Origin: a virus
Lineage: Duplodnaviria; Heunggongvirae; Uroviricota; Caudoviricetes
Virus record (IMG/VR): IMGVR_UViG_3300032103_000073
Length of the DNA stretch: 64,000 bases
Strand: one strand, 5' to 3'
Below are positions 2,710 through 37,617 of this stretch, in pieces. Both the position numbers and the translations under genes were made by a program. Numbering within the stretch: the first letter of the stretch is position 1; every line of letters begins with the position of its first letter. The notes beneath the pieces were generated by a model. The model made no database searches, was not told the DNA's origin, and saw nothing but the letters and a program-made list of their open reading frames with translations.

Positions 2710-2736
2710 TTGTACAACGCCATTAGGGTTGTACAA
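2710..2736. promoter_or_regulatory. perfect inverted repeat TTGTACAAC-N9-GTTGTACAA (CIRCE-like operator architecture)
   Basis: 9-nt arms with a 9-nt spacer immediately downstream of the -10 box and upstream of hsp20. Confidence 0.55.
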
Positions 2737-2780
2737 TGGGCACATTGCCCAAAACGTTCTTGCTTATTAAAGGAGAAAAT

Positions 2781-3273: not shown

Positions 3274-3579
3274 ATGAGCGTAATGGCAGAAACAAGTCAA
3301 TCAACTAAACAAGACGTTGTTATCAAGCAACCTAGCATGTATAAAGTCGTGTTTAATAACGACGATGCAACTCCGATGGATTTTGTTATTGATTTACTCA
3401 AGGCAGTTTTTCATCAAGACGAAGACCGTGCTACCCAAACTACAATGGAAATTCACGAAAAAGGTCGTGGCATTGCAGGTGTTTATACTTTTGAAGTAGC
3501 AGAACAAAAGCACAGCGAAGCAACGTATATCGCCCGAAATAATGGGCATCCACTTAACATTAACCTAGAGTCTGAATAA
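3274..3579 (+). CDS. clpS: ClpS-like adaptor
   Basis: PSMYKVVFNNDDATPMDFVIDLL...ATQ...H..G.....FEVAE matches the ClpS core. Confidence 0.8.
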   Translation: MSVMAETSQSTKQDVVIKQPSMYKVVFNNDDATPMDFVIDLLKAVFHQDEDRATQTTMEIHEKGRGIAGVYTFEVAEQKHSEATYIARNNGHPLNINLESE

Positions 3580-4267: not shown

Positions 4268-4696
4268 GTGCCAAGAAAACCAAACGTAACCCAAACTAAA
4301 CTGTTCAAAATGGTGCAACAGTTCGACGAATTTGACTGCAAATTTAGACCTACTATACAGGATTGTCGTAGCGTATTTCGTCAGATAAACAAGCAGGTAT
4401 TTAATAATGAATTAAAAATGCCAGCATTTAGATTAGTTTATTCTAGTGCATTTTGGGGTGAATGCACAGGCGATCAATATGACCAAACTAAATGCACTAT
4501 TAAAATGAACAAAAGCTTCTTATCTAAGAGGCTTTTTGTTTATACATTAGCACATGAAATGGTGCATCAATGGGAATGGTTAACCTATGAGAATATGACA
4601 CATGGCCCGAGATTCTTTATATGGCGAGAAGAATTAAGTAAATTCGGTATTATATTAAGTAGAAAATATCGAATAAAGCATTATAAGCTAAAGTAA
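4268..4696 (+). CDS. HExxH zinc-metallopeptidase-like protein (SprT-like)
   Basis: TLAHEMVHQWEW motif. Confidence 0.5.
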   Translation: MPRKPNVTQTKLFKMVQQFDEFDCKFRPTIQDCRSVFRQINKQVFNNELKMPAFRLVYSSAFWGECTGDQYDQTKCTIKMNKSFLSKRLFVYTLAHEMVHQWEWLTYENMTHGPRFFIWREELSKFGIILSRKYRIKHYKLK

Positions 4697-10158: not shown

Positions 10159-10520
10159 ACGACACACTACTGCTCATCTTGCTATTGTTTACAAAACATT
10201 TTATTGTAGACTTTCCCTTGCAACATCGCTACCAATGGAGCAATAAAGGCACATACGGACACCCAGGCGGCATCTTGCACTCTTTTTTGCATGGCCTGGG
10301 CACTTATTTTTGTGTTGTTTGGTTCGCTCCTGCGGCAGCGCCATATTTGGCTGCTATTGACTATTTTGCACACTACCACATTGACTGGGCCAAAATGAAT
10401 ATCAACAAGCGATTGGGCTGGACGCCTGCTACACATGAACAGTTTTGGTGGTTGTTGGGCTTGGACCAATTTCTCCATGTATTGACATATATTGGCCTAG
10501 TTGCTATAATTACACCATGA
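10155..10520 (+). CDS. hypothetical membrane protein
   Basis: hydrophobic segments, His-rich. Confidence 0.4.
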   Translation: MNDTLLLILLLFTKHFIVDFPLQHRYQWSNKGTYGHPGGILHSFLHGLGTYFCVVWFAPAAAPYLAAIDYFAHYHIDWAKMNINKRLGWTPATHEQFWWLLGLDQFLHVLTYIGLVAIITP

Positions 10521-10786: not shown

Positions 10787-11073
10787 TTTTTTTAAAACTT
10801 AATCTCACAAACCCCTTATGGAATAATCGCTGGGCAAATATTCGAAATTGGTCCGGCAAAACTCCATGGAAGCACAAGTATTTCGAGTTCCAAATTATGA
10901 AGGACTCCTGTCTTGTAAATATCGAGTTTAACTGCAACTTTAGAACAGATCACGCAGGTTTTGGTCTAGGCCTCGGTCTTCTTGGCTATAGTGCAGACTT
11001 TACGTTTTATGATAGCCGTCATTGGGATGACGATTCTAACACATGGACTGAATATGAAAAAGATTTTCTATGA
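10783..11073 (+). CDS. hypothetical protein
   Basis: ORF. Confidence 0.4.
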   Translation: MIFLKLNLTNPLWNNRWANIRNWSGKTPWKHKYFEFQIMKDSCLVNIEFNCNFRTDHAGFGLGLGLLGYSADFTFYDSRHWDDDSNTWTEYEKDFL

Positions 11074-11515
11074 GAAAAAAGGCCGCCGATATGTTCCTGT
11101 CGCTGAGTACGACAATGATTTTCTCGATAGTTTTACAAAGGGTAATCACCTCGTTATGTGTTATCCTGGGGGCACTAGTCGTAGGTTTAATATTGAACCT
11201 GCTCTTGCACCTATGATTGCCGCTGGGCGTCTTGCAGAAGATGCTATGTGTACAGCTATGAACAAGGCCAGCGAGCTAAAGCCCAGCAAGAAACCTATCA
11301 CCGAAGAACAGCGAGCAGCTTGGCAACATCTTGCACAAACATTTGGTGACGACATGTATACACTGCATGGTGTTAGTGTTCGCGACATTGTTGAAGCAGG
11401 CATCCAAGCACAAATAGCGGAAACTGAAAAGTTGATGAAGCATCCAGCAGTTAAAGAAGCCTACGACCATTTTATGTTTGTTGCAAAACTGGCCTATGAA
11501 GATCCGGCCAAATAA
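11054..11515 (+). CDS. hypothetical protein
   Basis: probable start at ATG 11054 (track ORF from 10982). Confidence 0.45.
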   Translation: MKKIFYEKKGRRYVPVAEYDNDFLDSFTKGNHLVMCYPGGTSRRFNIEPALAPMIAAGRLAEDAMCTAMNKASELKPSKKPITEEQRAAWQHLAQTFGDDMYTLHGVSVRDIVEAGIQAQIAETEKLMKHPAVKEAYDHFMFVAKLAYEDPAK

Positions 11516-11747
11516 GAATCCCAAACGAACTAGTGTAGTAGTTGAGTTCGATGAATTCTTTTTCTATACAACTAGCTCGGATGCACTAGCTGGAGATATC
11601 AATCAACTAGCAGAAAGTTTTTCAGCCCGGCGTTTGTCTTACAACATGTGGGAATTTGTCTCGCAAGAAGTTGCAGACAAGTTTGTTTTTATGTATAATT
11701 TAGCTGACTATGAAAATAAACGTAAAGCGAACAGATCGAAGACATAA
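11478..11747 (+). CDS. hypothetical protein
   Basis: ORF. Confidence 0.4.
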   Translation: MLQNWPMKIRPNKNPKRTSVVVEFDEFFFYTTSSDALAGDINQLAESFSARRLSYNMWEFVSQEVADKFVFMYNLADYENKRKANRSKT

Positions 11748-12027
11748 GTGCTCTGATAAGTTTAAGTATTACATTGATGTTGATTACGACACATTTGGAC
11801 AACGAATAAGTAGCCCTGAACTATTATCGGGAAAGTTTTTTGAACTTAGGGTATGGTGCTGGGCTACCTGGGGTCCTAGTAGAGAAGCAGACCAATACGA
11901 TACACGACCGCAGGCATTTGTCCTGGATCAAAACCCTCATTGGTCTTGGTTAAACGATGAGTATAGGCAACGGCTTTACCTTGCAGGCACCGATGAGGCA
12001 GCATTGTTTGCATTGAAGTGGTCATGA
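11710..12027 (+). CDS. MF-x-LRWS-motif family small protein
   Basis: C-terminus ...EAALFALKWS; first member of tandem array 1. Confidence 0.6.
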   Translation: MKINVKRTDRRHKCSDKFKYYIDVDYDTFGQRISSPELLSGKFFELRVWCWATWGPSREADQYDTRPQAFVLDQNPHWSWLNDEYRQRLYLAGTDEAALFALKWS

Positions 12028-12221
12028 CACGCATTGAATACTGGACTGTCTTGAGAAATTTAAAGACAGAATGGTCGCGTCAAAAGCCTGGCAATGATTT
12101 TGATGATTACGTTTTAGAAAAAACGGGTATTGTAATTTGTTATACAGAAGGCCATATTAGTAGCGAATATAAAGTTGCAAACAAAGAACAATATCTGATG
12201 TTTACATTAAAGCACACATGA
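12024..12221 (+). CDS. MF-x-LRWS-motif family small protein
   Basis: C-terminus ..YLMFTLKHT; TGGTCATGA stop-start overlap. Confidence 0.6.
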   Translation: MTRIEYWTVLRNLKTEWSRQKPGNDFDDYVLEKTGIVICYTEGHISSEYKVANKEQYLMFTLKHT

Positions 12222-12475
12222 CACGAGTTTACCATTGGTCGTTCCACAACGGCGTAGATTCTATCAATCCCGGTAGCAATTTTCCTATGGTGCCACCGCG
12301 CAGTTGGACCTGTTGGGTCTACCCTGAAGACGATCGAGAGTTTGAACAATGGATGGAAACCAACTGCCCAACAGCAGAATGTATCCATCGTTTTAATAGC
12401 GGTGATCCTATGTACACTGTGTCAATTACCAGTGATGAAGAATGTATGATGTTTAAACTTAGGTGGCAAGTATGA
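12218..12475 (+). CDS. MF-x-LRWS-motif family small protein
   Basis: C-terminus ..ECMMFKLRWQV. Confidence 0.6.
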   Translation: MTRVYHWSFHNGVDSINPGSNFPMVPPRSWTCWVYPEDDREFEQWMETNCPTAECIHRFNSGDPMYTVSITSDEECMMFKLRWQV

Positions 12476-12684
12476 GAGTTTTAAAGAAAGAGTTATGGCC
12501 GCATTGTGTGACATTAGACGGTGTAGACGATACTAGGCTGAAAATAGACGATGTCGAGATTTGGTTAGCAGATAGACTGGGTGCCTTTAAATCTAATTGG
12601 AATGCTGTCTATCATTACAATCGCACAGATTTTTATTTTAAGTCGGGCGACGACGCATTGATGTTTAAATTAAAGTGGTCATGA
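12463..12684 (+). CDS. MF-x-LRWS-motif family small protein
   Basis: C-terminus ..DALMFKLKWS. Confidence 0.6.
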   Translation: MASMRVLKKELWPHCVTLDGVDDTRLKIDDVEIWLADRLGAFKSNWNAVYHYNRTDFYFKSGDDALMFKLKWS

Positions 12685-13043
12685 GAACAAGTATTTGGTT
12701 TAGAACAGAAGAACGTCAGCCTGATAAGTCTGGGTCTTATCTCACTTATCGTGGATTCGGCATGGGCGGTATGGCTGATGGCGATCATCACAATGGCTAC
12801 TTGTATTACCACAAGAAAACCAATCAGTGGTATGAGTATGAAAGTGAAGTGAGGTCATCATTTCCTAGAACTTGTATTGTCTATTATTGGACTGATGCGG
12901 ATCCTGATGGCTGGACTGATCAAGATCCCCCTAGTATCCATATTAAGTCCTTAAAATCTATCAACCCTGCACTAGAGTCTGCTTGGCGAGATGTAGAAGA
13001 AGCTGTTAAGAAATATGAGTTTTTGAAAAAGTTAGTAGAATGA
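12681..13043 (+). CDS. hypothetical protein inside the array (no C-terminal motif)
   Basis: ATGA-coupled. Confidence 0.5.
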   Translation: MRTSIWFRTEERQPDKSGSYLTYRGFGMGGMADGDHHNGYLYYHKKTNQWYEYESEVRSSFPRTCIVYYWTDADPDGWTDQDPPSIHIKSLKSINPALESAWRDVEEAVKKYEFLKKLVE

Positions 13044-13324
13044 AAAAACGTCTAATACCAAATGATATTAGTATCTACGAACAATTCAGAATCAGAGAAG
13101 ATTTTCTAAAGCAAGTAGACACTTGGTCTAAACAAAAAAGATTTAGTCAGTATGTTGGTTATACTCCTGATCAATATCGATATATTGATCTAAACGATCT
13201 AGAACAAGCAAGCGGCGTTAGGTGTTTTTGGAGAAAATATATTGGCGAAAATCAACAGATGCTGGCAGGTTTTGAGTTAGTCAATATTGAAGCATATACC
13301 ATGTTTGTGTTAAAATACAGCTAA
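13040..13324 (+). CDS. MF-x-LRWS-motif family small protein
   Basis: C-terminus ..AYTMFVLKYS. Confidence 0.6.
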   Translation: MKKRLIPNDISIYEQFRIREDFLKQVDTWSKQKRFSQYVGYTPDQYRYIDLNDLEQASGVRCFWRKYIGENQQMLAGFELVNIEAYTMFVLKYS

Positions 13325-13554
13325 TGCCCTACGAAGTTAAAACAAATGGATTTCACGACGAAGTTGTAGAATGGCTACAGGAAAATGTAGGCGACTTACT
13401 TTGGAGTAGACCTATCGTTGAATGGAAGGGACAAGGCTGGACAATGAATCATTTTGGATCATTAGTCAATGAATCAAACCCTGGCAGATATAGGTATCTT
13501 ATTAGGATAAACGATGCTGAGTTAGCAACTATGTGTGCATTAAGGTGGTCATGA
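13324..13554 (+). CDS. MF-x-LRWS-motif family small protein
   Basis: C-terminus ..LATMCALRWS. Confidence 0.6.
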   Translation: MPYEVKTNGFHDEVVEWLQENVGDLLWSRPIVEWKGQGWTMNHFGSLVNESNPGRYRYLIRINDAELATMCALRWS

Positions 13555-13802
13555 AAACATACGACGGACATTTATACGAAACTTGCGAAGATTGGCATCC
13601 GGTTGTTATACGCAACACCGGCGTCTTTATGCAGGATCAAATTCTCCGCGGCCAGTGGTTAAGTGAAAACTGTCCTGACGGGAATTATGATTATGACGCT
13701 TGGTGCTATCCCGGCGACAATCTAACAGATCCTGATCATCGCACAATTTACTTTTTTAGAGACCAAGAAGTTGCTTTTAGATTCTCATTGAGGTGGTCAT
13801 GA
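13533..13802 (+). CDS. MF-x-LRWS-motif family small protein
   Basis: C-terminus ..VAFRFSLRWS. Confidence 0.6.
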   Translation: MCIKVVMKTYDGHLYETCEDWHPVVIRNTGVFMQDQILRGQWLSENCPDGNYDYDAWCYPGDNLTDPDHRTIYFFRDQEVAFRFSLRWS

Positions 13803-13963
13803 GAAACCCGTTGTACTGGCAGTATAATGGTGTAGCACCAATAACAGAACTCGTAGCCTGGTGCGAGCAACAGATCCCTGATGAGTATGTCTATCACGGC
13901 TGGGAGAGTATTTTATTTCTAACTAAAGGTGCAAAGATGTTATTTTTGTTGAGGTGGTCGTGA
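13799..13963 (+). CDS. MF-x-LRWS-motif family small protein (54 aa, not in the track)
   Basis: C-terminus ..AKMLFLLRWS. Confidence 0.5.
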   Translation: MRNPLYWQYNGVAPITELVAWCEQQIPDEYVYHGWESILFLTKGAKMLFLLRWS

Positions 13964-14160
13964 AGTTCTGGAACAAAAATAAAGAGCACAGATCCTGGAC
14001 TAAGGTTAGCGTGGCCGGCACCGACCTCAAGAAAGAGAAATTTTTGTGGTGTAAAAGGCAACCCAGCACAGGTAGATTTTATCGGTTTTACGGTGCTCCA
14101 TCTTGGTGGTTTGAATACCCCGAAGACGCTGTTATGTTTAGTTTAAGGTGGGGGCAATGA
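13960..14160 (+). CDS. MF-x-LRWS-motif family small protein
   Basis: C-terminus ..DAVMFSLRWGQ; GTGA start overlap. Confidence 0.55.
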   Translation: MKFWNKNKEHRSWTKVSVAGTDLKKEKFLWCKRQPSTGRFYRFYGAPSWWFEYPEDAVMFSLRWGQ

Positions 14161-14429
14161 GACCAGAATATAAAGTAGATGTCCCTCACACATACGAAGA
14201 AGATGCATTAGACGCTATGACTGAATGGTTGCAGTCTAATGTCGGTAAGCCCTATCCTTGGGACGATGAAGAAACAAGTTATAAACGATTTGACTGGGAA
14301 GCTGATGGTAAATGGTGTTGTGTTGCCGGATCAAACAAGTATAATAGACAGCCCGGCGACACTCTTTTGGATACATGGTGGTTCGCCGCCAAGGACGATG
14401 CTATGATGTTTTCGCTGAGGTTTGCATGA
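14148..14429 (+). CDS. MF-x-LRWS-motif family small protein
   Basis: C-terminus ..DAMMFSLRFA. Confidence 0.6.
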   Translation: MGAMRPEYKVDVPHTYEEDALDAMTEWLQSNVGKPYPWDDEETSYKRFDWEADGKWCCVAGSNKYNRQPGDTLLDTWWFAAKDDAMMFSLRFA

Positions 14430-14647
14430 TAGACAATAAACTAATCAAAGTCCCTGTTAAAGTAAGAAACTGGTGGGACTTGGAAAATCGTTTAATTGAA
14501 ATCAACCAACTGAGAGCATGGCTTGACGAAATTACAGATTGGCAACCGGATATGTATGAGCTGCGGTTTCACGGCATGGGACGCTATTGTAATGCATGGT
14601 TTGCAAACGAAGAACATGCCATGCTTTGTGCGTTAAAGTATTCATAA
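14375..14647 (+). CDS. MF-x-LRWS-motif family small protein
   Basis: C-terminus ..HAMLCALKYS. Confidence 0.55.
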   Translation: MVVRRQGRCYDVFAEVCMIDNKLIKVPVKVRNWWDLENRLIEINQLRAWLDEITDWQPDMYELRFHGMGRYCNAWFANEEHAMLCALKYS

Positions 14648-14895
14648 TGTTTATTCATACATATACACAAAAGAACTACGATGCACAAGAGCCGGAAATA
14701 GCAAGATGGTATGTGGCAGCATTTACTACTCCGAAAAACTATTATGATATTGCCAAGTGGTGCTACAATACATTCGGAGAACCTGGATTTATTCACAATA
14801 CGCAAAGAACTAGGTGGGCCGATGATATTCATTATGGTGAAATATATTTTAGTAATGAAGAAGACCTTTTGATGTTTATATTGAGGTGGTCGTGA
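14646..14895 (+). CDS. MF-x-LRWS-motif family small protein
   Basis: C-terminus ..DLLMFILRWS; WCYNTFGEPG motif. Confidence 0.6.
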
Positions 14896-15272
14896 AGTTT
14901 TATCAGGCACCTTGGATAACAGAAAAAACACAAAGACAAATGGCACGTTGGGAAATACACAAACGATTTGGTATAAAGCAAGCCTTATGGTGGCAGTTTA
15001 TGCCCGGCACTATCATAGAAGTAAAATGGCCTAGAGGTTGGGCTGTGCTGGATGAAGACCCAGACGGCGGCCAGACTGCCGTGGAATCCTCAGACCCAAA
15101 CGACCATTATAGACCTTGGCTGGAACAGAATGTCGGCAAGCAGGGCTGGGATTGGGATTGGCGTGTTGGGCAAGTCACATTATATGATGATCACCAAAGT
15201 GATACTTTGCTAATTAAAATTAGACACAAATATCGAAATACTGCTATAATAGCTAAACTAAAATGGTCATAG
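14892..15272 (+). CDS. MF-x-LRWS-motif family small protein
   Basis: C-terminus ..AIIAKLKWS. Confidence 0.55.
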   Translation: MKFYQAPWITEKTQRQMARWEIHKRFGIKQALWWQFMPGTIIEVKWPRGWAVLDEDPDGGQTAVESSDPNDHYRPWLEQNVGKQGWDWDWRVGQVTLYDDHQSDTLLIKIRHKYRNTAIIAKLKWS

Positions 15273-15274
15273 CT

Positions 15275-15574
15275 ATGAATATACGTGAGTTTATCAATAA
15301 AACACAAGAAGAACACGATCGTAGGTATCGAAATCAGTCTGCTGCTGAAGTTTTAATGGGCTGGGTTCACCGAGAGATTAAAGACTGGGGATCGGTGTTC
15401 GCAGAGGGAGGATATTATAGTGTCGTCCCTGCAAGCATTTCGCAATGGCAAGAACTGCACGAATGGTGTAATCAAACTTTTGGTCGAGAACACTATGCAT
15501 GGTCGGGCAATAACTTTTGGTTCGAAACTCCCGAAGACGCTACTATGTTTGCCTTACGTTGGGGGTCGCTATGA
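15275..15574 (+). CDS. MF-x-LRWS-motif family small protein
   Basis: C-terminus ..DATMFALRWGSL; WCNQTFG motif. Confidence 0.6.
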   Translation: MNIREFINKTQEEHDRRYRNQSAAEVLMGWVHREIKDWGSVFAEGGYYSVVPASISQWQELHEWCNQTFGREHYAWSGNNFWFETPEDATMFALRWGSL

Positions 15575-15810
15575 AACCAGAATATGATGAATACTGGTAC
15601 GAGCACAATGTCTTTTATTTTAAGATAGCAACGTGGAGTCGCCGATTTTGTTTTATCCCTCGCAAGTGTTGGTTATCTCAGTCGTGGATGTGGCTGCGCC
15701 CTGCTATGCGAGGCGTTAGGATTATTAAAGGCCCAGGATCCGATGTTGTTGAAATATACTGGGTCAATGAAAACGAGTATTTATTTCATAAGTTAAGGTA
15801 CGGATACTAA
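15573..15810 (+). CDS. MF-x-LRWS-motif family small protein
   Basis: C-terminus ..EYLFHKLRYGY. Confidence 0.5.
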
Positions 15811-16049
15811 TGGAATACTTTTGGAGTGATGGCGGCAATAATAGACCTTACTTTAGATATAGGGTTAAGGTAGCCAAATGCACTGAAGAAATGTATAAAT
15901 GGTGCGAAGCATTTGACGACGAAGGAGCGTACTTTCGTCGTTTTCATGTTGAGTGGAAAACCGTACATGCTGGTAAAGAATACGAAGTTGTTCAGTTTGA
16001 ATGGGATAAGGCTGCGCTAATGTTTAAGCTAACTTGGGGCGGCGAATGA
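15810..16049 (+). CDS. MF-x-LRWS-motif family small protein
   Basis: C-terminus ..AALMFKLTWGGE. Confidence 0.55.
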   Translation: MEYFWSDGGNNRPYFRYRVKVAKCTEEMYKWCEAFDDEGAYFRRFHVEWKTVHAGKEYEVVQFEWDKAALMFKLTWGGE

Positions 16050-16456
16050 TGCAGTTTATCAAAGTCATTAAAGAACGATATCAAGCGTGGCAAGATCAAC
16101 GTTTCCTAAAGAAACACTGCTGTAATAATTGGGAACAATATCTCCGTCAAACAGATCCTGACGTATTTTATCCTGCTACAAGAATCCGAGATTTTTATCA
16201 CGGCTACCCGTATGTTTATTGTTTTGAAAATCGCAGTCATCAAATATATCAGTGGGACTTGGGATTTGACGGTTCTGCCGAAATAGTTGATTGGGCAAAA
16301 TTCTACTGCGAAAGTAAAGTTAGGTTTGATGGTTTTCGCTGTGTCAAAGACAGCCAAGGAGATTGGTGTACAAACGAATTGGGCGGCGGCGACTATTATT
16401 TTGCCGCTTTTAAAAATGAACTCGATATGTTTAATTTTATATTGAGGTGGGCCTAA
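16034..16456 (+). CDS. MF-x-LRWS-motif family small protein
   Basis: C-terminus ..LDMFNFILRWA. Confidence 0.55.
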   Translation: MGRRMMQFIKVIKERYQAWQDQRFLKKHCCNNWEQYLRQTDPDVFYPATRIRDFYHGYPYVYCFENRSHQIYQWDLGFDGSAEIVDWAKFYCESKVRFDGFRCVKDSQGDWCTNELGGGDYYFAAFKNELDMFNFILRWA

Positions 16457-16701
16457 TGGCTCAAAAAACATTCATCGAAACTAACGGCTTAAAACTTATA
16501 AGCGATGAGCGCGACATTATGGTTCCTTCTCGACTCTTTGACGATGTAGTTGCATGGTGCAATATAAATCATATTGATGTCACTGTGCCGCAAGGTACTT
16601 ATAGTCATAGCACTGCTGCTAGCATATTTAAGGTACATCTTTGGCGTGTAAAAGATCAAGAACAGCGAATGTTGTTTGCACTACGTTGGGATTTGTTTTG
16701 A
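16447..16701 (+). CDS. MF-x-LRWS-motif family small protein
   Basis: C-terminus ..QRMLFALRWDLF. Confidence 0.55.
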   Translation: MGLMAQKTFIETNGLKLISDERDIMVPSRLFDDVVAWCNINHIDVTVPQGTYSHSTAASIFKVHLWRVKDQEQRMLFALRWDLF

Positions 16702-16985
16702 GTTATAACGGCATAGCAAAATTTAGACCAACAGGATTAAAGCTAGTGAAAATTTCACAAGTAATAGAAAACGGTGCAGACTGCTATCCTTGGCGTGAAG
16801 TATTTGTTTGGTTTCCCTGGGTCACTACTGTTTCGGGAAAGCGTATTTGGTGGGAGCGAGTATTTAAACGTAGAGTTTGGGTAGTATGGGGAACGGGATT
16901 TCATACGGAGCCCGAAGTGCAGTACGCAACTTTATTTGAACTGTTAGCTTACAAAGACGAAGATTATTTTAATATGGAAAAATAA
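16641..16985 (+). CDS. array member (divergent C-terminus)
   Basis: ..ATLFELLAYKDEDYFNMEK. Confidence 0.45.
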   Translation: MACKRSRTANVVCTTLGFVLSYNGIAKFRPTGLKLVKISQVIENGADCYPWREVFVWFPWVTTVSGKRIWWERVFKRRVWVVWGTGFHTEPEVQYATLFELLAYKDEDYFNMEK

Positions 16986-17290
16986 TGGCAGCACTAGTAA
17001 ACGAAGATTGGATAAGAGCACGTAGCTTACTTGATAAGGGCTGGGTGCATCATTTTATACCACTTAGTAGTTTGATTAGCACACGAGTAGGATGGTTAGT
17101 AGACACGTATGGACCGCCTGCTAACGTTAACCGTCCTATGTACATGGGCTTGGATTTTGACAACTGCTCCTGGATGTTTGTTAAAATGGAAGATGCTTTT
17201 AAAAAAACTTTAGACTTTAAACACGATTGGATGTTATTGTTTGAATCGGAAGAAATGCTGATGATGTATAAATTGAGATTTGGGGAATAA
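16985..17290 (+). CDS. MF-x-LRWS-motif family small protein
   Basis: C-terminus ..EMLMMYKLRFGE. Confidence 0.55.
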   Translation: MAALVNEDWIRARSLLDKGWVHHFIPLSSLISTRVGWLVDTYGPPANVNRPMYMGLDFDNCSWMFVKMEDAFKKTLDFKHDWMLLFESEEMLMMYKLRFGE

Positions 17291-17587
17291 ATGGATATTG
17301 TAATGGCAGGTCGCCGTGTGGGCAAAAGCATTATGTCTCAAATGTGGCGAGAAATAAATGAAATGACAGACAAATTATACAGCGAACTGACCAGTGCAGA
17401 AGTTGATGGCTGCATGTGGTATACTATTAAATGCACCGAGCCTGTTGCAGCATGGATTAGGCAACAGCCAGGTGAACACACTCAATGGGATAATCTTATC
17501 GATAACAAATGGTATGTGCATTTTGATCAATTTGATGTGCATGAGGAATTTTACTTGATGTTAAAATTGCGGTGGGGTGCGCAATGA
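17291..17587 (+). CDS. MF-x-LRWS-motif family small protein
   Basis: C-terminus ..FYLMLKLRWGAQ. Confidence 0.55.
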   Translation: MDIVMAGRRVGKSIMSQMWREINEMTDKLYSELTSAEVDGCMWYTIKCTEPVAAWIRQQPGEHTQWDNLIDNKWYVHFDQFDVHEEFYLMLKLRWGAQ

Positions 17588-17853
17588 ATAAAGCGTTAAA
17601 AGAATACGAAGATATACTTGCAGAAGAGATTCGCAAGGAAATTGATGCTGAAATATTGTTTAGTATGTATAAGACGTTTGGCTGGCATCCCGTTGTGGAT
17701 TGTCGAAATCTCAGTTTTAATCATGCCTTACTAAAACAAGTAGAAGAATGGCTTACTACAATGCCTCGTGGCAAGTATCATATTAAAAGTCATACCGACT
17801 ATATCTTCCAATTACAGGAAGATGCTATGATGTTTAAGCTAAAGTGGTCATAA
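17572..17853 (+). CDS. MF-x-LRWS-motif family small protein
   Basis: C-terminus ..DAMMFKLKWS. Confidence 0.6.
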   Translation: MGCAMNKALKEYEDILAEEIRKEIDAEILFSMYKTFGWHPVVDCRNLSFNHALLKQVEEWLTTMPRGKYHIKSHTDYIFQLQEDAMMFKLKWS

Positions 17854-17854
17854 T

Positions 17855-18028
17855 ATGACAGTAGTAGGTCGTAAAAAAGTCAGTGATGTGTTAAACTGGC
17901 TCAATGAGAAAAAGTTTAAATATACTATCAATACCTTGTTATCAAATTCACTTCACGGCGTTTATTATTTAGAAATGAAAAACAGCGAAGAAGAACTTCT
18001 AACACGACTTACTTGGGGAATCACATGA
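17855..18028 (+). CDS. MF-x-LRWS-motif family small protein (57 aa, not in the track)
   Basis: C-terminus ..EELLTRLTWGIT. Confidence 0.45.
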   Translation: MTVVGRKKVSDVLNWLNEKKFKYTINTLLSNSLHGVYYLEMKNSEEELLTRLTWGIT

Positions 18029-18783
18029 AAAAACTTTTAATAGCTCTTTTGCTCTTGCCTGCACTATCATGGGCTACTGCCAGCTATGGGGTATTTGATT
18101 TTGCCTCAGTAGAATACCAACACAGCAAGAACACAGACGAAGTTCGTAGCATTGCTAGCATTACAAAACTATTCACCGCGCAAACAGTATTAGACAGCGG
18201 CGTTGATTTAAGAGAATTGGTTCAAGTTAGGGGTAAAGCTACAGGCAGATTTGCCCGGGGCACTTTAATATCTCGTTATGAACTACTTCGCGCCATGTTG
18301 ATGAGCAGCGACAACTTGGCGGCAGAAACGCTAGCTCATGCCCATCCTGGTGGTTTTGAACGGTTTATACAAGACGTCAATACACGAGTCGGCGATATGG
18401 CACTTAAGAATACTGTAATTGTAGACAGCACTGGTTTACTACCTGGCAATAAAAGTACAGTTGACGACCTTCGTGATTTCTTGTTCACTTTACGTAAATA
18501 TATGTTGATACAGGCGTTAAGCGTAGAGAAAACTTATAGCACAGAATACCGCAGAGGTGCAAAGATAGTTAAAGTAAATTTAAAAAACACCAACCCGCAG
18601 ATGTGGTCATATGATAATATTGTTCTCACTAAAACGGGATTTACTAATCCAGCAGGTCGGTGTTTGGCTATGCTAGTTGAAAAAGATGGCGGTTTGTTTG
18701 CTGTGGTTAGTCTAGGGAATTTATCGGTGCAAGAACGATCGAAGAATATCGCCAACTTAATGAATGAAATAGGTAGTAAGTAA
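18025..18783 (+). CDS. secreted D-alanyl-D-alanine endopeptidase/PBP-like serine hydrolase
   Basis: signal peptide MKKLLIALLLLPALSWA; SxxK (SITK), SxN (SSDN) and KTG motifs. Confidence 0.65.
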   Translation: MKKLLIALLLLPALSWATASYGVFDFASVEYQHSKNTDEVRSIASITKLFTAQTVLDSGVDLRELVQVRGKATGRFARGTLISRYELLRAMLMSSDNLAAETLAHAHPGGFERFIQDVNTRVGDMALKNTVIVDSTGLLPGNKSTVDDLRDFLFTLRKYMLIQALSVEKTYSTEYRRGAKIVKVNLKNTNPQMWSYDNIVLTKTGFTNPAGRCLAMLVEKDGGLFAVVSLGNLSVQERSKNIANLMNEIGSK

Positions 18784-19301
18784 TGCAATATTATAAAGCA
18801 GTAGAATTTGATAATTTAGAAATTATACAGAAAAAGGTATTTGATCTTTTTCCGAAAGATGACTTTGAAAAGAATAAGTTATTTTATATAGATGATAATT
18901 TAAACAGTTTTCTTTCTATTCCCGAGTTAAAGGATAACTTAATTAGATTAGGATTATTAGACCATGTTATGGGTTTTGGCTTTTATGTGACAACAAAGCC
19001 CAATCCAATTCATACAGATAATACTGCTTATGATTATAGTTTGAATATTCCTATAGTTGGCTGCGAAAATACGTTTGTGGAGTTTTATGAATCTACTAGC
19101 GAGCCGATTAAGCTGCAATTATATACTGGTGTAATTTATTATCATTATAAACAACAATCCTGCACACTAAAAGATAAACTTGAACTAACAAGTCCGCATA
19201 TTATAAAAGTAAATGTGCCGCATGCAGTTATAAACAATAACAGTTCGCAACGAATCACCCTGTTGATCAGACTGAAAAAAACAGTCGGCGAAATATTTTG
19301 A
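18783..19301 (+). CDS. Fe(II)/2OG dioxygenase-like paralog
   Basis: IHTDN...YSLNIPIVGCENTFVEF...VPHAVIN (HxD...H); paralog of the 53041(-) ORF. Confidence 0.45.
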   Translation: MQYYKAVEFDNLEIIQKKVFDLFPKDDFEKNKLFYIDDNLNSFLSIPELKDNLIRLGLLDHVMGFGFYVTTKPNPIHTDNTAYDYSLNIPIVGCENTFVEFYESTSEPIKLQLYTGVIYYHYKQQSCTLKDKLELTSPHIIKVNVPHAVINNNSSQRITLLIRLKKTVGEIF

Positions 19302-25623: not shown

Positions 25624-26241
25624 ATGAGTTTAGTCCCAATGGTGCTCGAGCGTACAGGCAACAGCGAACGAGCAATGGATTTGTATAGCCGATTGATGCG
25701 TGACCGCATTATCTTGCTAGAAGGCGAAGTAGAAGATCGCATGGCTAACCTAATCGTAGCCCAGCTACTGTTTTTGGAAAGCGAAGATCCTGACCGCGAT
25801 ATCACTATGTTTATCAACAGCCCAGGTGGCAGTGTAAGTGCAGGACTTGCAATCTACGACACTATGAACTTTATCCGCCCCGATGTTGCAACTTATGTAG
25901 TTGGGCAAGCATGTAGCATGGGTTCGTTCCTTGCGCAAGCAGGAGCCAAAGGCAAGCGTTTTGTTCTACCCGAAGCTCGTACAATGATTCACCGGGTTAG
26001 TTCGGGCACTCGTGGTACCAGCGGAAGTGTGCATGTCCAGGACTTGCAGTTTGAAGATGCTCGTCGAAGCTTCGAGGAAAGTAAACGCATCAATGAACGT
26101 CTAACTCAACTTTACGTTAAACATAACACTGCTGGAAAAGGCTACGATGAATTGTTTAACGACATGAAGTTTGACACCTTCTTGAGCAGTCGAGAAGCAG
26201 TGGCATATGGTTTGGCTGATCAAGTTATTGAAAAACGATGA
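25624..26241 (+). CDS. clpP: ClpP-like serine protease subunit
   Basis: [15 protein letters not shown]......[10 protein letters not shown]...[10 protein letters not shown] matches the ClpP core with a Ser/His/Asp triad. Confidence 0.85.
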
Positions 26242-27501: not shown

Positions 27502-27510
27502 AATAGTAAA

Positions 27511-28362: not shown

Positions 28363-28371
28363 GGAAACAAA

Positions 28372-29488: not shown

Positions 29489-29509
29489 CTTTGGCAGTAT
29501 ACTGCTAAT

Positions 29510-32956: not shown

Positions 32957-33103
32957 ATGGGAGCGACTAATCCTGCTTGAAGAAATTGAGCGCGGTGAGA
33001 AAATTGTAATTCCTACCAGCATCGAGCATGCCGAGAACATGATACGTGTAGCACAATTTTATATCAATCAACATCACGAAGAAATGGTCGAGGTATTATC
33101 AAA

Positions 33104-34089: not shown

Positions 34090-34090
34090 T

Positions 34091-34288
34091 ATGCCGCAGT
34101 ATAGAAACATTGTTGTCCGGGTCCCGCGTGGCAATGCAGGCTGGCAATGGGGTCGCAATCAATGGCAAGAGTGGTGTGCATTAAATTGCCGGGGCGATTA
34201 TCAAGTGGTTGCATATAACAATCGTGAAATTACAGGCGGCTTCGATTTAGAGTCGGATGCAATGATGTTTATGTTGAGATGGTCATGA
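34091..34288 (+). CDS. MF-x-LRWS-motif family small protein
   Basis: C-terminus ..DAMMFMLRWS; start of array 2. Confidence 0.6.
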   Translation: MPQYRNIVVRVPRGNAGWQWGRNQWQEWCALNCRGDYQVVAYNNREITGGFDLESDAMMFMLRWS

Positions 34289-34740
34289 ATTATAATTCTC
34301 TATCGGATAAAGAACTATTAAACTATTTAGATCTATACAACGATGATCCTTTGGTTCGTCGCTTGTTAAAGATATTAGAAGAAGGAAGTATTGTACAAGA
34401 GCTGGTCGATGCAGGCATGGATCCTACTGACAGGACCTTTGAACATGATTGGCAGAATTTGAGTCCTGGTGATTACATCGAGCAACTTCGTAGAGACATG
34501 GAATACCATATCGAAGAACGTGACGAGATTGAACAAGAAAAAGAACACCTTGAGCGTGAAGTGACCCGTTTGTCTACTATGAGTCTTGTTAAATTTATCG
34601 CTGATGTTAGCGAGAAATTGGATGTTGCAAAATCAGAGATGCATCGTGCTCAACGTATTGCAGACAACGAAAAGAAGCTACGACAAGAATCTGAACAGAA
34701 ATTTGAGTTCTGGGAAAAACTAAATCACGGCATTAAATGA
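34285..34740 (+). CDS. hypothetical coiled-coil protein
   Basis: ATGA-coupled. Confidence 0.5.
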   Translation: MNYNSLSDKELLNYLDLYNDDPLVRRLLKILEEGSIVQELVDAGMDPTDRTFEHDWQNLSPGDYIEQLRRDMEYHIEERDEIEQEKEHLEREVTRLSTMSLVKFIADVSEKLDVAKSEMHRAQRIADNEKKLRQESEQKFEFWEKLNHGIK

Positions 34741-34940
34741 CAATCACAGACCTGCACGTACACAATGACGATAGGTATCCTTACAAGTATCGTTTAGATG
34801 TTCACATAGGTAACTTGAATCGTTATGAAGATGTACGGGACTGGATCGACCAACAAGGGATACCGGCCGTTATCGGACCGGGGTTTGGTTATTTTCGAAC
34901 CAAAGAAGATGCCTTGTTAGTAGCTTTACGATGGTCCTAA
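34737..34940 (+). CDS. MF-x-LRWS-motif family small protein
   Basis: C-terminus ..DALLVALRWS. Confidence 0.6.
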   Translation: MTITDLHVHNDDRYPYKYRLDVHIGNLNRYEDVRDWIDQQGIPAVIGPGFGYFRTKEDALLVALRWS

Positions 34941-34947: not shown

Positions 34948-34976
34948 TTGACACAAAATAATCATAGTGCTATAAT
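34948..34976 (+). promoter_or_regulatory. conserved early promoter
   Basis: TTGACA-N17-TATAAT. Confidence 0.7.
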
Positions 34977-34981: not shown

Positions 34982-35230
34982 ATGATGAAGCTGGAAACTA
35001 CAACGTCAACATGGCACGGTGCAAAGTATACGTGCATCCGTCCTCGTCTTTCCAGCTGGAGTGTTAGTGCCAATCAAGCTACATGGACTGCTATTTCACA
35101 GTGGTGCTATGACTCGTTTGGCGAGCCTGGAGACCTGTTTGATTCTACTTGTGCTCGATGGTATATTAGCAATGGCTATTTGTTCCGACAGCCCGAAGAT
35201 GCAATGATGTTTATGTTGAGGTGGTCATGA
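34982..35230 (+). CDS. MF-x-LRWS-motif family small protein
   Basis: C-terminus ..DAMMFMLRWS; WCYDSFGEPG motif. Confidence 0.6.
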   Translation: MMKLETTTSTWHGAKYTCIRPRLSSWSVSANQATWTAISQWCYDSFGEPGDLFDSTCARWYISNGYLFRQPEDAMMFMLRWS

Positions 35231-35496
35231 GTATTACTAAACCCGAATGCTATTTAGAGCCCGAGTTTTTAAACAAACTTTGGTGCAATTATGTTGAGAT
35301 TAATCACCTTGGCAAAGGCAAGTTTTATTACCTGGAGACGGAGTATTGTAGGGTAAGCCGCCGTGGGTATCTATCACAACAATTTGAATTGTGGTTGTGG
35401 AAAGAAGGTGCAAGTGTTCGACAAATCAACGGCAAGTGTTATTTAGAATTTATCGATGCAGAAGATGCAATGATGTTCAGATTGAGGTTTAGTTGA
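35227..35496 (+). CDS. MF-x-LRWS-motif family small protein
   Basis: C-terminus ..DAMMFRLRFS. Confidence 0.6.
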   Translation: MSITKPECYLEPEFLNKLWCNYVEINHLGKGKFYYLETEYCRVSRRGYLSQQFELWLWKEGASVRQINGKCYLEFIDAEDAMMFRLRFS

Positions 35497-35497
35497 T

Positions 35498-35761
35498 ATG
35501 TTTGAGTTTGCATCAATGACTACAAAGTACGAAAATTTCACTGGAAAGAAGTGGAATTACAGTGGCAACAATGACACTAACTACCTAAGGAAGAACTTTC
35601 CGATGGTAAGTCTCGAAGGCAATAAACAACTGCTAGACGAAATGCATTTAGTACGAGACTGGTGTCAAGAACAGTTTGGAGACTATTGGATCTACGATTG
35701 GAATGACTTTTACTTTAAGAATAAAGATGATGCAGTTTTGTTTGCGTTGAGGTGGCTATGA
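35498..35761 (+). CDS. MF-x-LRWS-motif family small protein
   Basis: C-terminus ..DAVLFALRWL. Confidence 0.6.
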   Translation: MFEFASMTTKYENFTGKKWNYSGNNDTNYLRKNFPMVSLEGNKQLLDEMHLVRDWCQEQFGDYWIYDWNDFYFKNKDDAVLFALRWL

Positions 35762-36033
35762 ACTTTGAGTTGCAAGAAGGATATAACAAGCGAGTTGAGT
35801 TTAGTCCGGCTGTTGTATACCGCATTATGTCCACTTGGACTGAAGTTAAAGTCACTAGAGCAATGGCCGAACAACTGGTATCAGTACCTGTAAAATATCC
35901 AGCATCAAAGGGATACCCTCGTATCAGAAAATGGGTCGACGATAACATCGAAGGCCGCTGGGCAAGTCATATTCATTTGTTTTATTTTGAAGAACCAACA
36001 GATGCGTTCCTTTTTAGATTGAGGTTTGGTTGA
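35752..36033 (+). CDS. MF-x-LRWS-motif family small protein
   Basis: C-terminus ..DAFLFRLRFG. Confidence 0.6.
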   Translation: MAMNFELQEGYNKRVEFSPAVVYRIMSTWTEVKVTRAMAEQLVSVPVKYPASKGYPRIRKWVDDNIEGRWASHIHLFYFEEPTDAFLFRLRFG

Positions 36034-36293
36034 TGGCAATAACTTATACAATGTCCGAAAAATGGCCTACTATAAAGTTCCCGAAATTACATAAGGTTGT
36101 TTATGATCAGCGATCAGATGAACAAGTATTAGCCGGATATCAACGAAGCTATAAGGATCATTTAGTAGATACATGGCTCGAAACAAACTGTAAGCATCCT
36201 TACTATCACAGTCCTGGGTATCAACGCGAAAAGTATATTCAATTTGAATGCGACGAAGAAGCATTTATGTTTGCACTACAGTGGAGCAACTAA
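36030..36293 (+). CDS. MF-x-LRWS-motif family small protein
   Basis: C-terminus ..EAFMFALQWSN. Confidence 0.6.
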   Translation: MMAITYTMSEKWPTIKFPKLHKVVYDQRSDEQVLAGYQRSYKDHLVDTWLETNCKHPYYHSPGYQREKYIQFECDEEAFMFALQWSN

Positions 36294-36517
36294 TGTTTTT
36301 CCATTGGTTTAAGTATAAAGTTCCAGTTGAAAGACATTCGAGTGAGATAATCATTAAAATGACATCAGAAGGCATCGTACCTTTAGCGAGAACAAATTTC
36401 TGGGACTATCTTAAACGAGAGTTTGGTGTCAAGCAATACTTTAACTGGCGCAACTGTACTAACTATATGGTGTTCAACAATGAAGAACACTACCTAATGT
36501 TTTTGTTAAAATTATGA
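36293..36517 (+). CDS. MF-x-LRWS-motif family small protein
   Basis: C-terminus ..HYLMFLLKL. Confidence 0.5.
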   Translation: MFFHWFKYKVPVERHSSEIIIKMTSEGIVPLARTNFWDYLKREFGVKQYFNWRNCTNYMVFNNEEHYLMFLLKL

Positions 36518-36819
36518 AACGAGATGATCTAATTAATATGATTGATAGCCTGTCACGAGGCATAGCAATACATCGACATCACGAAAAACGAGCCACCATG
36601 GCAAAAGATTCATTCAAGTTCAGCCGTAAATGGTATCAAGCACATTTCGATGTCGAGCAATATTTTGAAGTAGATGCATGGTGCGAAGAACAGTTCGGTC
36701 CACATCCTCGTCAACCCGATGCATGGAGCCGTTGGTGGCACAAGTTCGAGGACAGCATCTTGTTCCGTGACCAAGATGATTACATGATGTTTGTTTTACG
36801 ATGGGGCAAGCATGATTAA
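36514..36819 (+). CDS. MF-x-LRWS-motif family small protein
   Basis: C-terminus ..DYMMFVLRWGKHD; WCEEQFGPHP motif. Confidence 0.6.
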   Translation: MKRDDLINMIDSLSRGIAIHRHHEKRATMAKDSFKFSRKWYQAHFDVEQYFEVDAWCEEQFGPHPRQPDAWSRWWHKFEDSILFRDQDDYMMFVLRWGKHD

Positions 36820-37003
36820 AGTAAGTAAGAACCCGTTAGAAAGAAACAGCTATATTATTAGCAAAGGTCTCGATTATAAAACCGAAGACTGGTTAGAACT
36901 AAAAGAATGGCTCGAGCAACAAGACCACTTTTATCTCAACGGCGGAGTGCTGCATTTTAAAAGCGACGAAGTCAGTATGATGTTTGCATTAAAATACCTA
37001 TGA
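36812..37003 (+). CDS. MF-x-LRWS-motif family small protein
   Basis: C-terminus ..VSMMFALKYL. Confidence 0.55.
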   Translation: MIKVSKNPLERNSYIISKGLDYKTEDWLELKEWLEQQDHFYLNGGVLHFKSDEVSMMFALKYL

Positions 37004-37617
37004 TTAAACTACTTGGAAAACTCCCTTTAAATCCTGTTATCGCTCTTAGTGGCGGTGTGGATAGTATGGCTGTGGCTGATTTTGTTAGTCGTAGCAGAAG
37101 TGTGCAATGTGCATTTTTCCATCATGGCACCGGGGTTAGTGATATTGCAGCCCAAGTTGTCAAGGACTATTGCCTCAAACGAGGTTGGCATTTGTTTATG
37201 GGTCATATCGTCAATGAACGACCTGAGGACATTAGCCCCGAAGAACACTGGCGTAATGAACGTTATGCGTTCTTAGATAACCTACAGCGTGATGTGATTA
37301 CAGGTCATCATCTTGACGACAGTGTAGAAACTTACCTATGGAGCACCTTGCACGGCACTGCTAAGGTTATCCCGTATCAACGCAATCGTGTAATTCGCCC
37401 GTTCTCTTTGGCAAAGAAAGAGGACCTAGAAGCATGGGCTGAACGAAACAACGTGCCTTGGGTTGAAGATTACACTAACGGTGATACTAAGTATATGCGA
37501 AACTATGTGCGACACAATATTGTTCCGCATGCTCTAGCAGTGAATCCTGGCTTGCACAAAGTGGTAGCACGTAAAGTTGAAGAACAATATCACAAAACAC
37601 TTGACACAAATTATTAA
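37000..37617 (+). CDS. tilS: tRNA(Ile)-lysidine synthetase-like PP-loop domain (TilS N-terminal catalytic domain)
   Basis: SGGVDS PP-loop; TGHHLDDSVETYLW and VIRPF...WVEDYTNGD..Y.RN motifs match the TilS core; 205 aa, catalytic domain only. Confidence 0.75.
   Translation: MIKLLGKLPLNPVIALSGGVDSMAVADFVSRSRSVQCAFFHHGTGVSDIAAQVVKDYCLKRGWHLFMGHIVNERPEDISPEEHWRNERYAFLDNLQRDVITGHHLDDSVETYLWSTLHGTAKVIPYQRNRVIRPFSLAKKEDLEAWAERNNVPWVEDYTNGDTKYMRNYVRHNIVPHALAVNPGLHKVVARKVEEQYHKTLDTNY

Follow-up and report, generated by a model that had tools for sequence, protein, structure and literature searches.

Why would a large tailed phage carry two dozen small, divergent genes laid end to end, nearly all of them closing on the same few residues? 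The question is raised by a 64,000-nucleotide (nt) stretch of DNA from a virus of the Caudoviricetes (IMG/VR record IMGVR_UViG_3300032103_000073), which as a whole is called the window here. A first-pass annotation, made from the letters alone, described 24 consecutive, translationally coupled genes with a shared C-terminal (D/E)A-M/L-M-F-x-L-R/K-W-S motif and a second, shorter array. It put forward two speculative roles, a degron read by the phage's own Clp proteins or a diversified family for anti-defence or host takeover. The explanation we favour, and hold to be somewhat probable, is that these are dual-coded cassette arrays of a single phage-restricted family, forming an early repertoire for host takeover or counter-defence.

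Two arrays of small genes encode one protein family

Listing of open reading frames (ORFs) over 11000-19000 gave an unbroken chain of 24 consecutive plus-strand ORFs (array 1, 11710-18028, A1 to A24), and listing over 33500-37600 gave 11 more (array 2, 34091-37003, B1 to B11; Table 1). Gene starts were set at the stop/start junctions after all candidate starts of each ORF had been listed: the most upstream listed start is usually a GTG a few codons within the preceding gene, and nearly every gene has an ATG that overlaps the preceding stop. With these starts the proteins measure 54-136 amino acids (aa) in array 1 and 63-151 aa in array 2. Thirty-one of the 35 ORFs are robust members of one family, two are probable members (A16 and A20) and two are unrelated insertions (A5 and B2). 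The 24 back-to-back genes first described are thus present, with A5 falling outside the family and A16 and A20 only probably within it, and the 10 genes attributed to array 2 are 10 members among 11 ORFs. Together the 33 copies occupy 9 kb of the window. The two insertions are ATGA-coupled like the array members, and neither has a match in Pfam or PHROGs.

Membership was assessed with a regular expression for the C-terminal motif, which matched 29 of 47 ORFs within the arrays and 6 of 442 elsewhere in the window, and with hidden Markov models (HMMs). A model built from external metagenomic sequences only retrieved 28 window ORFs at E<0.01, all on the plus strand and all inside the arrays, so that the family signal is not circular; in a six-frame search of the window the same model gave no match outside the two arrays. 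A mixed model, from the alignment designated A2, recovered 31 window ORFs. Genes A16 and A20 were detected solely by a window-trained model and by eye. Two further candidates, 32999-33361 and 28363-28932, were not accepted as members, having E-values no better than 0.03 and no W-C helix.

The first-pass annotation recognised no function, and that verdict stands: Pfam, PHROGs (E<=0.001), NCBIfam, PADLOC and PDB sequence searches of the members returned nothing significant. Weak matches to Gp23, DUF3110, immunity phrog_3585 and EMC2 were set aside as chance (E>0.005, a single member each).

A compact domain with a predicted terminal helix

Alignments define a shared core of about 45-60 residues, consisting of a W-C/L-x-x-x-F/h-G helix (h, hydrophobic), a loop often containing Trp, a beta-hairpin ending in h-h-F and a terminal helix of the pattern [DE][DE]-A-h-h-F-x-L-[RK]-W. 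The positions that hardly vary (W, F, F, L, W) are all hydrophobic. The internal W-C-x-x-x-F-G motif noticed at first is real, in the form W-C/L-x-x-x-F-G, with a W that is kept in 90% or more of sequences. Length and sequence vary greatly in the N-terminal parts and in the loop between helix and hairpin. The reported richness in Trp is borne out as well (5.2% in the family, 1.6% in long window ORFs). Members are soluble and hydrophilic with isoelectric points of 4.4-9.9, mostly mildly acidic and about a quarter basic, and as a set they are therefore not uniformly like DNA mimics or like nucleic-acid-binding proteins.

AlphaFold2 models were computed for B4 from a 146-sequence alignment (predicted local distance difference test, pLDDT, 81; predicted template modelling score, pTM, 0.68) and for A3 from 32 orthologues (pLDDT 96, pTM 0.81). 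Both models have the order beta-beta-alpha-beta-beta-alpha, and in both the conserved motif is the last helix (residues 70-80 of 81 and 73-83 of 85), predicted with high pLDDT and lying 1-2 residues from the C-terminus. As modelled, then, the DAMMFxLRW motif is an ordered terminal helix of a compact domain and not a free tail. Larger members have one or two additional N-terminal strands, which complete a beta2-alpha-beta2-alpha sandwich.

Fold searches returned PCD/DCoH proteins, ACT domains, the C-terminal domain of T4 MotA, RNA polymerase alpha/Rpb3 domains and designed proteins, and the predicted fold is best described as a generic DCoH-like two-layer sandwich for which homology is not evidenced. 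A fold search of BFVD gave only entries named "uncharacterized protein, uncultured Caudovirales phage", which are themselves family members. The only domain fusions found are tandem duplications of the family domain itself.

Within the A3 subfamily, C32, C50, C55 and H57 are invariant or nearly so, and an NPGS loop is conserved between strands 1 and 2; the Cys and His residues may form a metal site that sets A3 apart from the other paralogues. A 1,176-aa ResIII/DEAD helicase, P0044, gave seven matches to the first-helix half of the profile only and was rejected as a member, the matches being probably repeat-driven or convergent. It contains seven repeats of about 70 aa, each opening with LKNALEIQNWCNQNFGDKEIW, and these might point to the W-C-x-x-N-F-G helix as a module of its own.

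Probable dual coding at the gene junctions

Among the 23 junctions of array 1, 15 overlap by 4 nt (GTGA twice, TTGA once and otherwise ATGA), a further five by 1 nt (TAATG or TGATG), and three have gaps of 0-2 nt. Array 2 has the same pattern save for one 41-nt gap between B3 and B4 (34941-34981), and 7 of its 10 junctions overlap. The absence of intergenic space therefore holds for the 20 overlapping junctions of array 1, with those three small gaps as exceptions. The tGGTCATGA context reported as typical is likewise common without being a rule: its exact form, TGGTCATGA, is the most frequent string but occurs at 6 junctions, beside the TTGA, TAATG and TGATG forms. The modal junction, TTG AGG TGG TCA TGA, reads L-R-W-S-stop, and it also holds a Shine-Dalgarno (SD)-like GAGGTGG and the next ATG, overlapping the stop.

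Codon choice at this position was examined in 371 non-redundant members from 56 loci. Where the motif Arg stands three codons before the stop and the next start overlaps, the codon is AGG in 77% (86/111) and AGA in 20 of the 111, whereas in long ORFs from these loci AGG makes up a background share of 6.8% among Arg codons. In motif Arg codons without an overlapping next start, AGG was found in 3 of 15, and where longer tails set the Arg five or more codons before the stop, CGN predominates. The longer tails in the window (A10, A15 and A22) have G-rich Trp-Gly codons (TGG GGN) in the SD position. TGA is the stop codon of 240 of the 371 members, and 173 have the ATGA overlap. In the window, 49% of junctions can form an anti-SD duplex of -6 kcal/mol or stronger, compared with 12% of control positions (p = 3e-4).

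These biases indicate that the R-W codons of the motif (AGG TGG) form an SD site for the overlapping next start, and that much of the R/K-W-S conservation lies at the nucleotide level, AGGTGG(TC)ATGA being the SD and start of the next gene. Translation of each downstream gene is, we infer, coupled to that of the cistron before it. The L and W of the motif are constrained at the protein level too, because they persist where no SD is present: members in Sinorhizobium phage Phosso end in L-T-W-L, encoded TTG ACC TGG, and B3 keeps LRWS with a CGA codon.

Distribution of the family

The search of sequence databases with an HMM, proposed at first pass, reveals a large family. A profile search of 1.84 billion representatives at 50% identity gave 2,011 clusters at E<=1e-3, whose representatives are mostly 45-160 aa long with the domain at the extreme C-terminus; a few have two tandem domains. 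Of the 150 top-ranked representatives, the majority have L-[RK]-W followed by one to four residues at the C-terminus. When the 146-sequence profile was run in a second, word-indexed search, no new sequences came up. In all sources checked, family sequences are named "hypothetical protein" throughout, and a literature search found no description of the family.

The family appears to be restricted to phages. A scan of 185,579 reference genomes for the A3 subfamily gave as its sole match one 1.6-kb contig of a metagenome-assembled genome (MAG), and the same subfamily is present on 54 viral contigs in IMG/VR. Across 55 loci a local HMM counts 2-20 co-oriented members within +/-10 kb. No cultured phage in INPHARED matched the array DNA by megablast, and tblastn of A3 likewise gave no match; members in cultured phages, namely in Phosso and in the PA5oct group, were recovered only through the family consensus and P0045. 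Phosso (469 kb) carries a five-gene overlapping array and three members on the opposite strand. Pseudomonas phage PA5oct has a single member, EST35_0247, which has no virion mass-spectrometry flag; several neighbouring PA5oct genes are flagged.

Selection and cassette turnover

Two related contigs preserve the setting of the arrays. A 345-kb JGI contig (L004) carries a counterpart of array 1 upstream of the same Peptidase_S11 gene, and in a 320-kb NCBI contig (L001, GCA_902729995.1) an array of nine members precedes the same PP-loop ATPase gene that follows array 2. Each of the 24 array 1 genes has a positional orthologue in L004. For 23 the ratio of nonsynonymous to synonymous substitution rates (dN/dS) lies in the range 0.02-0.22, with dS of about 0.2-1.7; the divergence of A4 is too great for an estimate of dS. 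Low dN/dS together with these orthologues indicates that the ORFs are translated and individually maintained, and that they do not collapse into longer genes. Neighbouring ORFs also lie in different frames, and the original gene calls hold as separate genes.

Across the array the DNA of the window and that of L004 are about 90% identical, and the differences amount to two indels of one whole gene each and two replacements of cassette size (A4 and A13). The extra family cassettes of L004 (L004 9400-9621 and 11182-11358) each sit exactly at a junction repeat, at the 3' junctions of A13 and of A18. At the first breakpoint the string ...ATGTTT...TTGAGGTGG is joined to the identical string one cassette further on, and at the second TTGAGGTGGGCCTAATGG is joined to TTGAGGTGGGGTTGATGG, both within the junction repeat. 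Unequal recombination or slippage between junction repeats would produce such indels as its expected outcome, with reading frame and expression signals kept.

Direct DNA repeats in the array are almost exclusively at the junctions (60-87% identity), and paralogues share 10-38% aa identity, so the expansion of the array is old; recent duplication as its origin was rejected on the same grounds. In about 50 more distant loci, A3 alone has widespread orthologues and most other genes have none at 40% identity or above. The pattern reads as birth-and-death turnover around a conserved anchor, A3.

Promoters of the arrays

A search of the window for sigma-70 promoters found 18 perfect matches (12/12) to TTGACA-N17/18-TATAAT, all on the plus strand, where about 0.01 would be expected by chance. 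Matches at 11/12 add 13 on the plus strand and one on the minus strand. Related loci have the same bias (55 loci, 928 kb): at 11/12 or better, the gene strand has 285 matches and the opposite strand 16. Many of the promoters are followed by a similar leader of about 30-35 nt, acatacatagcgtaaacaaacaggagttaaagATG, with an SD-like caggag, as compared without formal alignment. Terminator-like hairpins are not enriched in the 9-20 kb region (7 found, 7.8 expected).

The nearest perfect promoter upstream of array 1 heads its operon (Table 1), and an ATG at 10517 lies 6 nt past its -10 element, so that the first gene of the operon may be leaderless. An 11/12 site inside A14 could be an internal promoter; in L004 a promoter-like 11/12 site lies at roughly the corresponding place of the array (locus position 9947), matched by position and not by alignment. 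The sole intergenic gap of array 2 also contains a perfect promoter, with the ATG of B4 5 nt past its -10 element. Four promoters in all have an ORF ATG 5-6 nt past the -10 element (10505-10519, 27499-27513, 29498-29512 and 34971-34987; ATGs at 10517, 27511 for a Metallophos gene, 29510 and 34982 for B4), and this short spacing suggests leaderless mRNAs. Bacterial IF3 discriminates against leaderless and non-AUG initiation, and these promoters are of note since the phage also encodes an IF3 homologue.

Because the arrays lie in a co-oriented region dense in perfect sigma-70 promoters, they are most likely transcribed early, by host RNA polymerase immediately after infection. Among the relatives considered here PA5oct, with its one family member, is the only one with transcription data; it relies on host RNA polymerase, with promoters TTGAC/TATAATA (PMC7318152).

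Interpretation and alternatives

In the mechanism we propose, the arrays would be polycistronic blocks of gene cassettes whose products are small, soluble alpha+beta domains built on a core of about 45 aa, and the C-terminal motif would have three roles. It would be the last core helix of its own protein's fold. Through AGG-TGG or AAG-TGG, one codon ending in A and TGA, it would supply a GAGGTGG SD and an ATG overlapping the stop, letting ribosomes pass from gene to gene with no need of intergenic space. Repeated at every junction over about 15-40 nt, it would also be the site at which cassettes are gained, lost or swapped with frame and signals preserved. The polycistronic early mRNAs would be translated by coupled reinitiation, variable N-termini and loops on the common scaffold would bind differing host, and possibly phage, targets, and the repertoire would evolve by cassette birth and death.

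That the members are diversified early binders of host (or phage) targets, acting in takeover or counter-defence, is to our minds close to an even matter, if not slightly below it. This idea, one of the two raised at first pass, is consistent with a setting dense in sigma-70 promoters, a repertoire that turns over between phages and a distribution restricted to phages.

Several points weigh against this account. A strong SD is found at only about half of the window junctions, and the rest would need termination-reinitiation alone. The RNA structure of junctions did not differ from that of controls (unpaired probability 0.415 and 0.443, p = 0.09), and the folding predictions give no sign of coupling by masking of the ribosome-binding site; from this we infer termination-reinitiation aided by the embedded SD, and not unmasking of the site. 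A fast arms race would not be expected to leave such strong purifying selection between close relatives. The early timing of the arrays is read solely from promoter sequence.

A bolder version would make the arrays a self-propagating "plug-and-play" cassette system, in which dual-coded ends and microhomology shuffle binders that neutralise host defence or housekeeping targets. We offer it tentatively, as a possibility well short of even. If it is true, the repertoire would be shuffled, expanded and exchanged without integrase, promoters or spacers, and the roughly 2,000 clusters at 50% identity would form a large unrecognised reservoir of counter-defence and takeover effectors.

The strongest competitor to diversified binders holds that the members are subunits of one or a few hetero-oligomers, for instance DCoH-like mixed beta-sheet dimers or tetramers, whose stoichiometry is set by the coupling. 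Tight stop/start coupling is typical of operons for stoichiometric complexes, all the paralogues are under purifying selection, and PCD/DCoH proteins, which are oligomeric, are among the best fold matches; the smallest members (44-56 aa), with a hairpin and two helices only, may need a partner to complete the sheet. A fixed complex is hard to square with 2-20 copies per locus of which only A3 is conserved, with the single member of PA5oct, and with the gain and loss of whole cassettes between close relatives. We consider hetero-oligomers unlikely.

Less likely again is that the members are small nucleic-acid-binding regulators that reprogram host or phage expression. The early-type promoter setting would suit them, but most members are neutral or acidic, no basic surface motif is conserved, and the conserved positions belong to the hydrophobic core.

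The degron proposed at first pass does not survive well. It would make the C-terminus a degron or targeting tag for the phage ClpX/ClpP (with ClpS) and the family a set of short-lived early proteins cleared by proteolysis. ClpX, ClpS and ClpP are indeed all encoded in the window, as Pfam confirms, and nearly all members, distant ones included, end 1-4 residues past the conserved W. Both AlphaFold models, however, place the motif in an ordered, buried terminal helix with no free tail, the endings vary (S, A, G, L, V, GQ, GSL, GKHD and others; RWS, KWS, RWG, KYS), and the position-specific AGG bias gives the R-W-x ending a nucleotide-level cause. The C-terminal signals of ClpX are of the LAA and MuA types, which the endings of the members do not resemble, and ClpS serves N-degrons of ClpAP, not C-terminal tags; both facts count against a degron, which we regard as very improbable.

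Hardly credible at all is a purely RNA-level conservation of the C-terminus, as ribosome-binding site and next start in ORFs that are otherwise unrelated, filler or mis-called: the SD-linked codon bias and the confinement of DNA repeats to junctions would fit it, but the profile match spans some 50-70 residues including the W-C-x-x-x-F-G helix and the hairpin, a common fold is confidently predicted, dN/dS is low, and L-x-W is kept where no SD can form.

Returning to the cassette arrays as we read them, definition of the family gives annotators a new domain, in arrays that recur in at least 55 related viral contigs, and it provides tractable candidates in cultured phages (Phosso, and the EST35_0247 product of PA5oct). 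The arrays show large phages packing and evolving accessory repertoires with zero intergenic DNA. They also advise caution, since conserved terminal "motifs" of overlapping genes may partly reflect constraint at the RNA level. Should the members turn out to be binders that act in host takeover or anti-defence, the arrays would offer many new inhibitors.

Other genes of the window

The window encodes a group of proteostasis and translation proteins, namely ClpX, IF3 (both domains), Hsp20, ClpS, a SprT-like protease and ClpP (Table 1). The adjacency of ClpX and IF3 is common to the window and Phosso (L061 31397-33243). Host-like envelope and transport genes are also present, encoding an SPFH/Band-7 protein, a TctC-family periplasmic receptor and a D-Ala-D-Ala carboxypeptidase; in Phosso, too, an SPFH gene is present, close to the arrays of that phage.

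Thirty-two tRNA genes, all on the plus strand, lie within 37652-54390. They include tRNA-Trp(cca) and tRNA-Arg(tct), the latter reading AGA and presumably AGG by wobble, and both are relevant to a Trp-rich family with AGG at its junctions. At 48346-48419 ARAGORN also reported a tRNA whose anticodon has four bases (gtaa); it may be an artefact or a tRNA of the frameshift-suppressor type. The PP-loop ATPase gene (ATP_bind_3, TilS-like) that follows array 2 is succeeded at once by a promoter and a CAT-anticodon tRNA (37652-37728), and the two may be a phage lysidine synthase and its tRNA-Ile2 substrate.

Table 1. Positions of array genes, adjoining genes, promoters and other named genes in the window
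Feature	Position	Strand	Description	Evidence
A1	11710..12027	+	member, 105 aa, end ALFALKWS	HMM; dN/dS 0.05
A2	12024..12221	+	member, 65 aa, degenerate tail LKHT	HMM, dN/dS
A3	12218..12475	+	member, 85 aa; sole widely conserved subfamily	orthologues on 54 IMG/VR contigs; AlphaFold2 pLDDT 96
A4	12472..12684	+	member, 70 aa; diverged allele replaces the cassette in L004	54% aa identity
A5	12681..13043	+	non-member, 120 aa; unrelated gene embedded in array 1	93% aa identity in L004
A6	13040..13324	+	member, 94 aa, tail VLKYS	HMM, dN/dS
A7	13324..13554	+	member, 76 aa	HMM, dN/dS
A8	13551..13802	+	member, 83 aa	HMM, dN/dS
A9	13799..13963	+	member, 54 aa, near-minimal domain	HMM, dN/dS
A10	13960..14160	+	member, 66 aa, GTG start	HMM, dN/dS
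A11	14157..14429	+	member, 90 aa	HMM, dN/dS
A12	14426..14647	+	member, 73 aa	HMM, dN/dS
A13	14647..14895	+	member, 82 aa; diverged L004 counterpart, 58% aa identity	HMM, dN/dS
A14	14892..15272	+	member, 126 aa, GTG start	HMM, dN/dS
A15	15275..15574	+	member, 99 aa, conserved N-terminal extension	HMM, dN/dS
A16	15571..15810	+	probable member, 79 aa, tail KLRYGY	window-trained HMM only
A17	15810..16049	+	member, 79 aa	HMM, dN/dS
A18	16046..16456	+	member, 136 aa	HMM, dN/dS
A19	16456..16701	+	member, 81 aa	HMM, dN/dS
A20	16698..16985	+	probable member, 95 aa, TTG start; motif ATLFELLAY, then 10-aa extension	window-trained HMM
A21	16985..17290	+	member, 101 aa	HMM, dN/dS
A22	17291..17587	+	member, 98 aa	HMM, dN/dS
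A23	17584..17853	+	member, 89 aa	HMM, dN/dS
A24	17855..18028	+	member, 57 aa; stop overlaps (ATGA) Peptidase_S11 start at 18025	HMM, dN/dS
D-Ala-D-Ala carboxypeptidase (Peptidase_S11)	18025..18783	+	non-member, coupled to end of array 1; same synteny in L004	Pfam
B1	34091..34288	+	member, 65 aa	HMM
B2	34285..34740	+	non-member, 151 aa, acidic, net charge -14, coiled-coil-like	HMM, composition
B3	34737..34940	+	member, 67 aa; tail LRWS = CGA TGG TCC TAA, without SD or overlapping downstream start	HMM
B4	34982..35230	+	member, 82 aa, AlphaFold2 pLDDT 81	HMM, model
B5	35227..35496	+	member, 89 aa	HMM
B6	35498..35761	+	member, 87 aa	HMM
B7	35758..36033	+	member, 91 aa	HMM
B8	36033..36293	+	member, 86 aa	HMM
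B9	36293..36517	+	member, 74 aa	HMM
B10	36514..36819	+	member, 101 aa	HMM
B11	36812..37003	+	member, 63 aa; stop overlaps (ATGA) PP-loop ATPase start at 37000	HMM
PP-loop ATPase (ATP_bind_3)	37000..37617	+	non-member, coupled to end of array 2; same synteny in L001	Pfam
Perfect sigma-70 promoters	6220, 8499, 10482, 19298, 21112, 21447, 23089, 23476, 26576, 30568, 31448, 34948, 37601, 44087, 51542, 54272, 58537, 59771	+		12/12
Promoter heading array 1 operon	10482..10510	+	TTGACA-17-TATAAT, nearest upstream	12/12
Possible internal promoter	15221..15250	+	sigma-70-like, inside A14, just before A15 start	11/12
Promoter in array 2 gap	34948..34976	+	sigma-70, before B4	12/12
ClpX	403-1641			Pfam
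IF3	1598-2134			
Hsp20	2736-3215			
ClpS	3274-3576			Pfam
SprT-like protease	4268-4693			
ClpP	25624-26238			Pfam
SPFH/Band-7 protein	31622-32419			
TctC-family receptor	41270-42196			

Comparison with known systems

Early or host-takeover modules such as the terminal-redundancy module of SPO1 and the early small ORFs of T4 are the nearest point of reference. Like them, and like the hyperplastic regions of T4-type phages with their PeSL promoter cassettes (PMC2839356, PMC4122927), the window has many co-oriented small genes, strong host-type promoters and content that varies between related phages, and as with PeSL elements, repeated regulatory sequences at cassette borders go together with modular gain and loss. 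The arrays differ from takeover modules in being paralogues of one fold rather than unrelated ORFans. They differ from PeSL cassettes in that the border element is the coding 3' end of a gene with the next SD and start, not an intergenic promoter/terminator, and from both in having essentially zero intergenic DNA. The promoter-plus-leader cassettes of the window recall PeSL elements. These promoters flank operons, and hairpins resembling terminators are not enriched in the 9-20 kb region.

Large DNA viruses also maintain multigene families, such as MGF110, MGF360 and MGF505 of African swine fever virus (ASFV) and the ankyrin families of poxviruses. These too are tandem divergent paralogues with copy-number variation between strains and a presumed role in host interaction; the family described here has another fold with no sequence relationship, forms polycistrons with overlapping stops and starts, and has a much smaller core of about 45-60 aa. 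A lineage-specific expansion of the same class is known from Bacillus phage G, with about 35 copies of a zinc ribbon (PMC7824862). At the level of structure, the PCD/DCoH proteins (PDB 2ebb, 1uso) resemble the family in size and in the predicted beta2-alpha-beta2-alpha two-layer sandwich, but sequence identity is about 10% and no member matches Pfam PF01329. On these models the resemblance is topological, with no evidence for homology or shared function.

Polyimmunity arrays place small immunity proteins (SUKH, Imm families) beside polymorphic toxins. They share with the present arrays runs of divergent small alpha+beta paralogues and birth-and-death evolution, each immunity protein being thought to neutralise a different partner. 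Here, by contrast, no toxin gene adjoins, the best immunity match is to phrog_3585 at E = 0.13 for a single member, and the genes are phage-encoded in a region dense in sigma-70 promoters.

Finally, ATGA-coupled operons in general have the stop/start overlap and an SD within the upstream coding sequence. What differs here is that a conserved protein motif, repeated at each paralogue junction, itself contains the SD and start, so that the coupling signal would be inherited with each cassette. What sets the arrays apart is the combination: one unannotated fold in 33 copies within 64 kb, with a motif that serves as helix, as the initiation region of the next gene and as recombination joint.

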